Shown one piece after another: positions 39,001 through 42,000 of a DNA stretch of 64,000 bases. Position numbers: made by a program. Where the stretch lies: NCBI RefSeq assembly GCF_016026235.1, contig NZ_CP065613.1. One strand, written 5' to 3'. The DNA is from Escherichia coli (GTDB lineage Bacteria; Pseudomonadota; Gammaproteobacteria; Enterobacterales; Enterobacteriaceae). Each line of letters starts with the position of its first letter. Positions within the stretch are counted from its first letter, which is position 1.

Positions 39001-42000
39001 CGTTGGCCTCAGCGATTAAGCAGTCAGGGCAGCATGAAATTTTTTCTCTGTCCTCGCCATTACGATCGCTCCACACCAGTATATGCGTGTGATATTCGCC
39101 ATGTTTTTCGCAATATCCGCGACCTTCACGCATCAGGCAGGAACGATAAGGCCATGGCTTTTCGCCCTTCTGAGCAAATGCAATCTCTGCCCGTAACTCA
39201 TCCATTCGCGCCTGTAGTCTTTTTTGTTGTTCACGCAGGTTAAACGTCATCATCGCTGTCACCTCAGAATGTCAGTTTGTCACTGGATTTACCGAATTTG
39301 TCAGACATGGCTCCCAGGCCAGCCAGGACATCGACCTGTCGCTGTCGCCCACCTCCGGGAGCGGCTGGCTGTTGCCAGAAGTCTTCGAAGTGACGATCGG
39401 GTCCAAAGAACGTCGCTGCCTGCTTCACGAACTGTGTGCCGTTATTTCCTGTGGCACGTATCCAGGCGGCATACCGCTTCACGCCATCAAGCATGGTCTC
39501 CGGTTTTATTCCCTCCCTGATACGGGCTTTCCAGGCTTTGAAGGCTGCGGATTTTGAGTTACCACCAGCACGTTTTGGATATTCCTGCCAGGCCTGTTCA
39601 AATTCCGGTGAATATTCCTGTCGGGCAGAACGCGCTGGTGCAGACGCGTCAGCGGATGCGCCAATAGTGTTTTTACTCTCTGTAGTATTCTCTGAAGTAA
39701 TCTCTGTTGTATTCTCTGTAAGATCGAAATTGGTTTTCCCTTCTCCGCGGCGAGGGGTTTCCCGTGTCCGCGGTGAAGGCTTTCCCTCCTCCGCGAAATT
39801 GGGTTTTACAGTTTCCCGAAAACGGGTTTCCCCATTTCGGGAAAACTGATTGTTTTCATTGATAATTTCATTAAGGCGCTCACAATCTATACGGTAGAAC
39901 ATTTTGTGCTCAAGACGCTTGTTGGTTTCAACCAAAATGCCTCTGGACACAAGATGCTTACGCGCTACAGCCTGTTGTTCAAATGTAAGTCCGGTTTCGT
40001 GTTGTATCTCTTCACGCGTTTTATGTACGCCTTCCGCTGCATGTGCTTTATCCTGCCAGTAAAAAATCTGACCAAAGAAAATAACAGCGTGCGGACTTCC
40101 CATGTATTTAACGAGCCCAGGGTAATAAGCAACCGGATGTCCAAAATCGAGCAGAAGATCAGACGGACGCATAGCCACCTCCCAGGCGTTTAAACATTTT
40201 TCCGGACTGAAACGCCACCAGCGGATAACTCAGGGTATGAGTACGTCCCTGAACCTGGCAGACAACCTTCTGGCTTTCTGTATTGACCAGGCAAACCCGC
40301 AGAACGTGGCCGTTGCTGGTGGTGAACCACTGCCCCACTCGGGGGCAACGGTTGTATCGGTGATACAGGGAATTAACGATGCGGCGAATCATGGACGCAC
40401 CTCCTTGTCAGAACCATTCAGCCTGGAATCAACAAGTGCAGCACCAAAAACAGCATCACCTACACGGTCGTACAGTTTGCTGGCCAGCGGAGATTCAACA
40501 GCCTTAAGCATTGGGTAAAGCTGGCTTGTCCAGATTTGATGGATTTCACGCAAATGCAGGTATACGCCTCTGGCGTTTTGTGCGACAGATGACATGTCAG
40601 CCGCACCAGCTCCTGATAAGCTCCTCTCCATCTGGTTAAAGGCATTGATGTATGCCTCTTTGAACCGGGCGGCACGTTTACCAGTGAAGCCCATAGCAAG
40701 GAAGGCGAAGCCGTCGCGGGTGATTTGGTAGCAGGGAAGTTTGCGAGTACCGCCGTTGGGCTGGCGTACCAAAATTGATGTCTCCGCAAAATTGCGGGCA
40801 CAAAACTCTGGAGAACAATCCAAAATGCGGATCTTTTTCAGAACATCGTCATGACGTTTAGAGAAGAAGTTGGCAACAGCCAGGGATGAAGTAACAGCCT
40901 GACCATCAACGATGGCAATTTCAGGTTGAGTGAGGGTTGGGATCGTAGCCATGATGGCAGCCTCTTTGGTGATTTTTAATAACTCACCACCAAAGCTTCT
41001 CACGGCAATAGGTGGTGAGACGTACAGGGGTGAGAAACCGGTCACCAAAGAACCCGGCCCAACCGAAGTTGGCCCTGCACGCCCCACCATAATTTGGGCG
41101 TAATGCTGCTCATGACACAAAAAAACCGCAAGAGCGCGGTTGTGCGCTTTGGTGAATTCCGGGTTCTCACGCCCGGCACCCGCTTTATAAGGTGCGGAGA
41201 CAGTGTAACGTCCCGAAATTGCAGAATCAATATCAAAATGTTGTAGCTGTGGACAACGCGAAGCCTTGTTGTTATTGTTTACAACAAGAACCAGAGGAAG
41301 CTTTAAATGCCATCCAGACTGTATAAACAGTTCATCCGTCATCTCGGTGAATCTGAATACATACGAATCCGCATATGGGAAGTGGAGCCTGCTGTATTGG
41401 GTAGCCAGCACAACTACAAATACAGCATGGCTTATGTCGTTGATGGCATGTGTGTGATGCGTTACGACAACGAACGGGGTAAAGGCGATCACAAACACAT
41501 TGGTAGTCAGGAAGTCAGCACCAGCTTTGTCACCATTGAACAACTGCTCGCTGATTTTCTGGCTGACGTTGAATCCATCCGCAGAGGTATCTGACATGAG
41601 AACCGTAACAATCCGAATCGAGTCAATGGATAATTTCACGGCTGATGTGCTGTCTGCGTTCCAGGAAGCAGCTACCGGAGCAAAAGCAACCAGAGAAAAC
41701 GTTATTTCATTTCCTGACTGGCAAATGATGCATAAGGTACTGACACCAAAACGCATGGACATTCTGATGGCAATGACTGGTGCCGGAGAAATGTCCATCC
41801 GAAAAATTGCAGCCCTGGTTGGACGTGATGTAAAAAGCGTGCATACTGACGTGACCGCACTCATCAGCAACGGTTTACTGGAAAAAAGCGAGCGCGGAAC
41901 GTCATTCCCGTATGACGACATCCACTTTGATTTTACGCTGGGCAAGGCGGCGTAATTTTTCGTATATACCGTGCCGTCATTCCGGCGGCGCTTCACACTC

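Follow-up and report, generated by a model that had tools for sequence, protein, structure and literature searches.

We analyzed a 64,000-nucleotide (nt) stretch of Escherichia coli DNA (assembly GCF_016026235.1, contig NZ_CP065613.1; hereafter, the window) that carries an O-like phage gene with internal repeats. Positions 39667 to 39858 are probably, as judged from the sequence, the replication origin of a lambdoid prophage of the Shiga toxin (Stx) phage type, lying within the linker-coding middle of its own initiator gene. This reading is supported by arrays with a period of about 23 bp at a like position in all relatives, the co-segregation of the iterons with the N-terminal domain (N-domain) of the initiator, constraint acting on the DNA and a disordered linker, as well as by the placement of the gene in an initiator family, followed by genes for DnaC-like and DnaB-like proteins. 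The kind of origin is already known from lambda, SPP1, and pSK41, and the present copy is a new, uncharacterized member. The proposal of the initial annotation, a candidate phage origin placed as lambda ori is inside O, was supported by all comparative tests run. The initiator gene and the parts of the putative origin are as follows.

39264 to 40178, minus strand: O-like replication initiator gene, 304 amino acids (aa) from the GTG at 40178 (list of open reading frames [ORFs] and PHROG 270).
39846 to 40172, minus strand: region coding for the N-domain (aa 1 to 109), of winged-helix fold; the presumed iteron-binding module.
39841 to 39875, minus strand: upstream AT-rich tract, 77% AT and 51% purine, encoding the end of the last N-domain helix (..ERLNEIINENNQ..).
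39836 to 39858, minus strand: degenerate sixth, promoter-proximal unit without the GGGAAAnCC core (register print).
39721 to 39835, minus strand: five 23-bp iterons in exact phase (register print and statistics); the units in the 23-nt register are 39835-39813, 39812-39790, 39789-39767, 39766-39744, and 39743-39721.
39722 to 39725, no strand: GATC (Dam site) where the last iteron meets the 12-mers (sequence).
39667 to 39720, minus strand: four tandem 12-mers with an AAACAC tail; the proposed DNA-unwinding element (DUE) and module-swap joint (Tandem Repeats Finder [TRF], composition, stability, and conservation).
39264 to 39666, minus strand: region coding for the C-terminal domain (C-domain), a module swapped between phages whose N-domains and iterons differ.

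On the gene strand, the iterons have the consensus nnnGGGAAAnCC-nnTTTCGCGGA, with a core (GGGAAAnCC) that is partly dyad-symmetric (GGG-N3/4-CCC); relatives exhibit TGCG-N5-CGCA and GGCG-N5-CGCC. The self-match at period 23 reached 62 of 92 positions versus 38.6±1.8 (maximum, 46) in 1,000 dinucleotide-preserving shuffles, each scored at its best period from 6 to 40 in a 92-nt window. This is the strongest short-period signal of the 64 kb, with no other 915-nt stretch exceeding 45 of 92. When up to three mismatches were allowed, the consensus was found four times in the array, versus 0.18 matches expected over the whole window. The other matches in the window were three isolated ones, in cutC and in phage structural genes; these were taken as chance, and a role for them as regulatory sites was dismissed. 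Direct repeats of a lambda-type origin comprise at least four sites, about two helical turns apart and with an internal dyad, and the window has five units at exactly 23 bp.

The initial annotation had described three units of 23-bp period at 39734, 39757, and 39780, followed by two related units at 39811 and 39826. The first three were recovered by TRF (23-nt period, 2.7 copies, 39735 to 39795, score of 80) and by a repeat search (three 23-nt copies at 39732, 39755, and 39778), and the unit at 39826 is in phase, 2 × 23 bp from 39780. The one at 39811 is out of phase and corresponds to the spacer half of an iteron plus one arm of an inverted repeat, and a weaker in-phase unit around 39803 (GGGTTTTAC) had been overlooked. 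The register print replaces the layout of three plus two units by a single array of five in-phase units. The inverted repeat, TTTTCCCGAAA / TTTCGGGAAAA at 39809-39826 / 39831-39848, brackets the first iteron, and the degenerate sixth unit supplies its TTTTCCCGAA arm. It could act as an extended binding site, a cruciform, or an mRNA hairpin. Burkholderia, Acinetobacter, and Pasteurellaceae relatives also have the TTCCCGAA...TTCGGGA pair on either side of the first iteron. We also observed that the DNA sequence of the inverted repeat TTCCCGAA ... TTCGGGAA is maintained in relatives from E. coli, Burkholderia, Acinetobacter, and Pasteurellaceae (L003, L006, L007, and L008; gene nt ~330 to 370), with variable neighboring bases.

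Directly after the iterons, from 39720 down to 39673, the gene strand reads TACAGAGAATAC AACAGAGATTAC TTCAGAGAATAC TACAGAGAGTAA, that is, four 12-mers of the type ACAGAGAnTAC, in agreement with the four 12-bp units first annotated at 39673 to 39720. TRF gave a 12-nt period of 3.7 copies at 39677 to 39720 (score of 67), the repeat search gave 12-nt copies at 39674, 39686, and 39698, and the self-match at period 12 was 28 of 36 versus 19.7±1.0 (maximum, 26) in shuffles. On the gene strand, the AT and purine contents of the block are both 67%, compared with 50% and 54%, respectively, for the whole gene and 77% and 70% for the AT-rich tract of lambda, and no other 45-mer of the gene is less stable (ΔG of −50.9 versus a mean of −62.5±4.9). 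The 12-mer block is thus the AT-rich, strand-asymmetric tract that in a lambda-type origin directly follows the iterons. A GATC stands at its start, as in the oriC 13-mers. Together, the array and the 12-mers span gene nt 321 to 512 (aa ~106 to 169), between the folded domains 1 to 109 and 189 to 255, which is the location of a lambda-type origin.

The protein matches PHROG 270, "replication initiation protein," over its full length (residues 3 to 303; E value of 1.1e-65), and genes 96 to 97% identical are annotated as "phage replication protein O" in Stx1- and Stx2-converting phage records and in phage ASU11. An alternative ATG start at 40172, which is the annotated start in the Stx1 phage relative, would yield 302 aa. 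Residues ~107 to 283 have PHROG matches to DnaD-like and primosomal families. No family was found in Pfam (E ≤ 0.01) or NCBIfam, nor was there a match in a PDB sequence search at E ≤ 1. The initial description as an O-like protein holds for the initiator family (PHROG 270) and fails, at the sequence level, for the lambda O family in TIGR01610, Pfam, and hhalign comparisons: the window protein has no TIGR01610 match, whereas lambda O matches at 5e-39, and the alignment of its N-domain with that of lambda O (hhalign) had a probability of 0.4%.

An AlphaFold2 model built from 21 homologues gave the N-domain (1 to 109) a winged-helix topology, with a predicted local distance difference test (pLDDT) score of 63 to 84 (mean of the model, 56). 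Residues 109 to 185, which cover the ori-encoded residues ~106 to 169, are predicted to be disordered; the initial translation of the repeats as a low-complexity linker was correct for the minus strand. The C-domain is helical in the model, with a helical bundle at residues 189 to 255. The best fold match of the model was the plasmid RepA_N initiator pSK41 Rep (PDB 4pta), whose origin likewise lies inside its own gene. The RepA_N sequence model (PF06970) is not matched by the window protein, and the structural features of that family (a winged-helix N-domain, origin repeats in the gene, and an ori-encoded linker) are all present.

Relatives were gathered in four independent ways: by N-domain protein similarity, by megablast against E. 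coli genomes, by a motif scan of viral contigs, and by N-domain protein patterns. Comparison with the O genes of relatives, which the initial annotation had suggested as a check, found the repeats in all of them, including the Stx-converting phage records and phage ASU11. By N-domain, the annotated phage relatives are Burkholderia phages BcepIL02 and DC1 (58 to 61% identity) and, at 48 to 51%, Pasteurella phage Pmp14, Aggregatibacter phage Aaphi23, Klebsiella phage Kp4884-1, and Acinetobacter phage Abp9. The strongest internal period was exactly 23 bp, from gene nt 300 to 350, in every N-domain relative tested; in the same test lambda O gave 23/24, with its four annotated iterons at the same gene position. 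The arrays of these relatives hold two to three units with cores (TGCGGAAAgCGCA, CGACGAAAACGCA, and CCCGAAAGTGACA) akin to the GGGAAAnCC of the window, and each abuts two to three ACAGAGAnTAC-like units. In Aaphi23 and Pmp14 the unit is ACACTAGATTAC with a 13-bp period, so that two copies are translated differently.

Megablast showed the full gene in ~100 of 5,426 complete E. coli genomes and at least the 12-mer block in 1,633, with ~1,400 genomes matching just 40 nt of the query, namely, the block itself. In E. coli C, the block lies inside a Qin-type O-like gene whose product has no BLASTP similarity to the window protein; this gene carries five 23-bp iterons of another sequence (GGTCAAAATG type), then GATC, and then identical 12-mers. 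phiP27, PhiR49_2, and others match only query positions 511/513 to 915, at 92 to 96% identity. When viral contigs were scanned with the motif ACAGAGANTACNNCAGAGA, the best period of the 170 nt upstream was 21 to 24 bp in 115 of 117 testable loci (exactly 23 in 89), and the motif stood 400 to 600 nt into ORFs of 250 to 370 codons. Among the loci found by N-domain protein patterns alone, the block followed directly after the array in all 79 complete ones; most of these keep the junction TTCGATCyTACAGAG, and the 12-mer copies number three to five.

The viral N-domains are linked into one superfamily, which a threshold of ≥60% identity divides into 35 subgroups, each characterized by a different iteron sequence, and the C-domains fall into 21 clusters that are shuffled relative to those subgroups. 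The linkage was analyzed pairwise over 98 distinct loci. Among 269 pairs with N-domains ≥70% identical, the iterons were ≥70% identical in 255, intermediate in 14, and <45% identical in none, and in 130 of those 255 iteron-matching pairs the C-domains were unrelated. Conversely, none of the 26 pairs with a common C-domain and different N-domains had common iterons. Since iteron identity follows the N-domain and never the C-domain, as expected of a site and the protein that binds it, the iterons belong to the N-domain, with which they are specifically co-inherited throughout the 98 loci and 35 subgroups. The apparent point of module exchange, from these comparisons, is at or after the 12-mers.

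A BLAST search with the block reached initiator, "O-like," or "DnaD-like" genes of Acinetobacter, Klebsiella, Vibrio, Erwinia, Staphylococcus, Bacillus, and Synechococcus phages. The full layout was confirmed in Staphylococcus phage 37 (23-bp iterons), Bacillus phage PM1 (22 bp), and Synechococcus phage Ssp-JY37 (23 bp); ORF012 of phage 37 gave no significant pairwise BLASTP match to the window protein and a collinear alignment at 26%. The initiator gene and origin of Xanthomonas phage SU1 (L133, OR842880) are nearly identical to those of phage 37 (L130), which is odd for a Xanthomonas host and suggests a misassigned host or a contaminant record. In species-representative genomes, 52 of 117 matches passed a strict filter (period of 21 to 24 bp with ≥28 of 46 matches, in frame, ORF of ≥180 aa; null rate of the periodicity, 2%). 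These loci belong to Gamma-, Beta-, and Alphaproteobacteria, Desulfuromonas, Cyanobacteria, Bacillota, Chloroflexota, and Gracilibacteria. About half of the genome matches were regarded as chance and removed, a remainder that fits the ~280 chance matches expected for a 16-base pattern in 596 Gb. We define this grouping as a 21- to 24-bp array abutting at least two tandem ACAGAGAnTAC units in the middle of the ORF of a winged-helix initiator gene; the window belongs to it, together with 115 of the 117 viral contigs, the 79 complete protein-ascertained loci, 52 of the 117 genome matches, and the Staphylococcus, Bacillus, and Synechococcus phages. The 12-mer, as far as its sequence tells, recurs next to unrelated iterons in phages of at least six bacterial phyla.

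The block was also found by BLAST on 41 plasmid records, of Bacillus, Nostoc, Escherichia, Acinetobacter, Marinobacter, and others, with a single Staphylococcus record. One of these plasmids, pBSG3 (L216, NC_014104; Bacillus, 8.4 kb), carries at nt ~700 to 900 an orphan phage-type origin without an initiator N-domain: ~22-bp CCTACAGGGAAAGA repeats, close to those of Bacillus phage PM1, precede three ACAGAGATTAC units, and the only ORF over this copy is an out-of-frame one of 63 codons. Like orphan copies occur on small Bacillus amyloliquefaciens/velezensis plasmids (H212, H213, and H226-H228). Possible explanations of the pBSG3-type orphan are a decayed fragment, a decoy directed at PM1-like phages, and a hitchhiking device.

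Codon usage was counted only in T-E-x-T tetrapeptides outside the span fixed by the search pattern. Glutamate is GAG in 29 of 30 of them, versus 44% elsewhere in the same genes (P = 1e-9), and the first threonine is ACA in 28 of 30, versus 26% elsewhere (P = 1e-14); the 12-mer codons are identical in AT-rich Staphylococcus and GC-rich Burkholderia phages. The constraint appears to act on the DNA more than on the peptide, because the 23-nt period gives no peptide repeat, the synonymous sites are fixed, and an orphan copy exists outside an initiator ORF. A caveat on the constancy of the codons is that copy-number slippage can homogenize the 12-mer copies.

With the anatomy of the region, its statistical significance, conservation, and linkage, the fold of the initiator, and the disordered linker established, a mechanism can be proposed. 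The winged-helix N-domain of the O-like protein would bind the five iterons in their 23-bp phasing, probably in dimeric form at the GGGAAAnCC cores, which are partly palindromic, and the resulting nucleoprotein complex would be bent. The block of four 12-mers next to the array on its promoter-distal side, which is AT-rich and purine asymmetric, could then melt and so relieve the strain, and the C-domain would bring the phage DnaC-like loader and DnaB-like helicase onto the opened DNA. Ease of melting is probably not the only property of the 12-mers: the constancy of their sequence beside many iteron types suggests that one strand may be recognized specifically. The candidate recognizer is either a conserved surface of the initiator superfamily, comparable to that of winged-helix plasmid Rep proteins acting on DUE 13-mers, or a universal replisome component. 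The block would also provide the homologous joint for swapping N-domain-plus-iteron modules against C-domain modules, since it is common to many loci and always in one frame. We infer initiator binding, melting of the 12-mers, helicase loading, and activity of the present copy.

The question of which flank of the array opens leads to the best-surviving alternative, namely, that the iterons are initiator sites and the DNA opens at the upstream tract 39841 to 39875, with the 12-mers acting merely as an in-frame exchange joint or as linker peptide. We consider this unlikely. The tract is the least stable 30-mer and the second least stable 45-mer of the gene, and the block is demonstrably a recombination joint, given the junction in locus L175 and the ~1,400 E. 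coli genomes that have only those 40 nt in common with the window gene; the constant frame of the block in 117 of 123 loci is likewise in keeping with such a role. The initial annotation had treated the upstream tract as the AT-rich partner of the array, and here its presence stands and its role is doubtful: BcepIL02 and DC1 have a GC-rich stretch in its place and its sequence is not kept, which excludes it as an element general to origins of this type. The 12-mer block is more probably the unwinding element because it lies on the same side as the AT-rich tract of lambda, where the order in the gene direction is iterons and then AT-rich tract; because its purine asymmetry (67%) is near that of lambda (70%) and not the 51% of the upstream tract; because it is conserved in all relatives; and because tandem short DUE repeats have precedents. 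It is, moreover, the least stable 45-mer. As for a pure joint, recombination does not need a tandem 12/13-nt periodicity, diverged yet repeated variants (ACAAGAGAATAC and ACACTAGATTAC) persist in lineages that no longer share the sequence, and the block persists on a plasmid without the gene. Among the precedents are the 13-mers of RK2 and F, where winged-helix Rep proteins bind a single strand and all copies are needed (PMC4081077); in addition, lambda-type O proteins of Stx phages bind AT-rich single-stranded DNA (ssDNA) (PMC7466680), and the purine asymmetry of the AT-rich tract of lambda has been described (PMC5043065).

That the 12-mer block is both a recombination joint and prone to slippage is also seen in individual loci. 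Locus L175 (IMGVR_UViG_2534681940_000023) is an apparent recombinant in which a window-type N-domain and iterons are joined exactly at the block to a C terminus of the Qin/lambda-O type, and other near-identical copies (L138, L187, and L159) have five 12-mers, not four.

A second alternative, which we regard as very improbable, is that the repeats bind the initiator for regulation (autorepression, titration, handcuffing, or exclusion of related phages) and that the true origin lies elsewhere in the prophage. Initiator-binding repeats are indeed regulatory in iteron plasmids (PMC4980987, PMC5043065), and the orphan iterons and 12-mers on pBSG3 could be a decoy; against this, the window has no second array, its other consensus matches being the three isolated sites in cutC and phage structural genes, and an array plus an AT-rich repeat block at a fixed place within the initiator gene is the plan of the proven lambda, SPP1, and pSK41 origins. 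The least probable explanation of all, a slippage-prone, low-complexity coding linker without cis function whose periodicity is a by-product of peptide repeats, agrees with the translation, predicted disorder, and variable copy number of the segment, but it meets with a 23-nt period that shifts the frame between copies and leaves no peptide repeat, with fixed synonymous sites, with an iteron sequence that tracks the DNA-binding domain over 35 subgroups, and with survival of the element outside any initiator ORF.

Several points weigh against an origin at 39667 to 39858 that opens at the 12-mers. A literature search gave no binding, unwinding, or origin-activity data for the family, with subscription journals thinly covered. 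Stability does not separate the two flanks, as 30-bp windows put the upstream tract lowest. The identical codons among the 12-mer copies, which vary from three to five, could partly reflect recent slippage, and the block is read as Thr-Glu in 117 of 123 loci, a constancy that a shared in-frame joint would give likewise and that leaves room for a role at the peptide level. The confidence of the structural model is moderate, with the mean pLDDT of 56 and the N-domain range given above. Finally, the phage helicase gene is interrupted in the present genome, and this copy may be silent.

As described above, origins inside initiator genes are known, and we compared the window with them. Lambda ori consists of four iterons and an AT-rich tract; the N-domain of O binds, and its C-domain recruits P-DnaB. 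The window resembles lambda in having the origin inside the initiator gene, between the N- and C-domain parts and at the same gene position (nt ~350), in its iteron spacing (23 bp, compared with 20 to 24 bp), in the passage, along the direction of transcription, from iterons to an AT tract that is A-rich and purine asymmetric, and in an N-domain that confers specificity combined with an exchangeable C-domain (PMC7466680, PMC5043065). It differs in an N-domain without detectable sequence relationship to that of lambda O, in the iteron sequence, in having five in-phase units and not four, and in its partners, which are DnaC-like and DnaB-like phage proteins and not P with host DnaB. Moreover, the AT-rich element of the window is a conserved tandem 12-mer, whereas lambda has one marginal match. 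This best weight-matrix match in lambda O, TCAGAGAATTCT at 39163-39174 (L009 locus, 664-675), lies directly after the AT-rich tract of ori-lambda, and its score of 11.5 is only a hint beside the 95th percentile of shuffles, 10.9; it may be a vestige of the 12-mer element. The replication biochemistry that we found for Stx phages concerns a lambda-type O/ori with six iterons (PMC7466680).

The Rep protein of pSK41 binds four Rep boxes in the middle of the gene that encodes it, the central part of the protein, encoded by ori, is a linker that can be dispensed with, and the C-domain is host specific; pPR9 is a natural chimera in which the N-domain and ori were replaced together by a phage-like module (PMC5703833). 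The window family shows this pSK41/pPR9 type of modular behavior. It differs from RepA_N in being of phage origin, in its repeats, and in the unmatched RepA_N Pfam model, and antisense-RNA copy control is not expected. In SPP1, oriL lies inside gene 38, with gp38 as the origin-binding protein, gp39 as the loader, and gp40 as the DnaB-type helicase, and replication has been reconstituted in vitro (PMC6316719). Here too, direct repeats are followed by an A-rich AT tract as the DUE within the initiator gene, with loader and helicase genes next. However, there is no significant protein similarity (the BLASTP comparison of the O-like protein with gp38 was not significant), the repeat period is 11 bp versus 23 in the window, and gene 38 lacks an ACAGAGAnTAC block (best matrix score, 5.0). 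The RK2 oriV 13-mers and the oriC DUE are likewise tandem, AT-rich repeats of 12 to 13 nt adjoining the duplex sites of the initiator (PMC4081077, PMC5043065). In contrast to these and to the DnaA-trios, the 12-mers are of unrelated sequence, protein binding to them is only putative, and a repeat of the window type is common to initiators of many duplex specificities in hosts of several phyla.

The 12-mer is a by-product of this work of greater interest than the origin itself, being constant beside dozens of iteron types over several phyla, with a suggested role in unwinding or ssDNA capture. We put forward, as a tentative possibility, that it is an undescribed sequence-specific origin element, a universal opening or ssDNA-capture site of the winged-helix initiator superfamily in phages, prophages, and phage-plasmids of at least six phyla. 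Under the same tentative proposal it might be a counterpart of the DnaA-trios or the RK2 13-mers that sits beside fast-evolving specificity iterons and doubles as an in-frame module joint. No prior account emerged from a literature search that covered both the exact 12-mer sequences and descriptions of origins of this kind, which is weak evidence, as subscription journals were mostly outside its scope.

Next, the surroundings of the initiator gene were examined. The window matches E. coli CFSAN029787 at 100%, and the genes that follow the initiator are listed here.

38375 to 39262, minus strand: DnaC-like helicase loader gene, immediately downstream of the initiator (Pfam IstB_IS21/Bac_DnaA/AAA; PHROG 50, E value of 5e-90).
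38018 to 38378, minus strand: 5' part of the DnaB-like helicase gene (Pfam DnaB N-terminal domain; aligns with nt 19 to 370 of the intact Stx1 phage gene).
36754 to 38017, plus strand: IS3-family insertion sequence of 1,264 bp within the helicase gene (NCBIfam transpos_IS3, E value of 1e-99).
35720 to 36753, minus strand: 3' part of the DnaB-like helicase gene (Pfam DnaB_C, E value of 4e-73; aligns with nt 368 to 1401 of the intact gene).

The IS3-family element comprises orfA (36818 to 37120) and orfB (37156 to 37974) and has a 3-bp target duplication, its flanks overlapping by 3 nt on the intact gene; the helicase gene is uninterrupted in the Stx1 phage relative. Because of this interruption, the replication module of the present prophage is probably defective, and the copy probably cannot fire unaided. 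A CI-like repressor gene (43610 to 44341, plus strand) and Rha/antirepressor-type genes lie upstream of the initiator gene, which places the latter in the leftward early operon of a lambdoid prophage. Scans of 38300 to 44400 gave seven promoter-like sites (7.1 expected) and eight terminator-like sites (6.9 expected); one of the latter, at 39827 to 39844, was rejected as merely the inverted repeat around the first iteron. In the leftward early region, two overlapping plus-strand ORFs (95 and 151 aa; 41307 to 41955) run antisense between the Rha-like and antirepressor-like genes and may be an inserted moron or a toxin-antitoxin-like pair. The 620-codon minus-strand ORF at 40389 to 42251 looks like a read-through artifact, the real Rha/antirepressor-type gene being its C-terminal part only. 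At 59890 to 60636 there is a cutC-like host gene, and the prophage consequently ends before ~59.9 kb. In the phage database, relatives bear names taken from yecE/ompW integration sites.

Overall, these results place the probable origin of a widespread replication module of the Stx phage type, and phage replication has been reported to be necessary for effective Shiga toxin production (PMC7466680). The 12-mer is a conserved and easily mutated element with which to probe how winged-helix initiators open DNA, a question that reviews list as open (PMC5043065). In phage and prophage DNA of many phyla that lacks annotation, the signature of a ~23-bp array followed by ACAGAGAnTAC repeats pinpoints initiator genes and putative origins, and it also marks the sites at which their replication modules would recombine.

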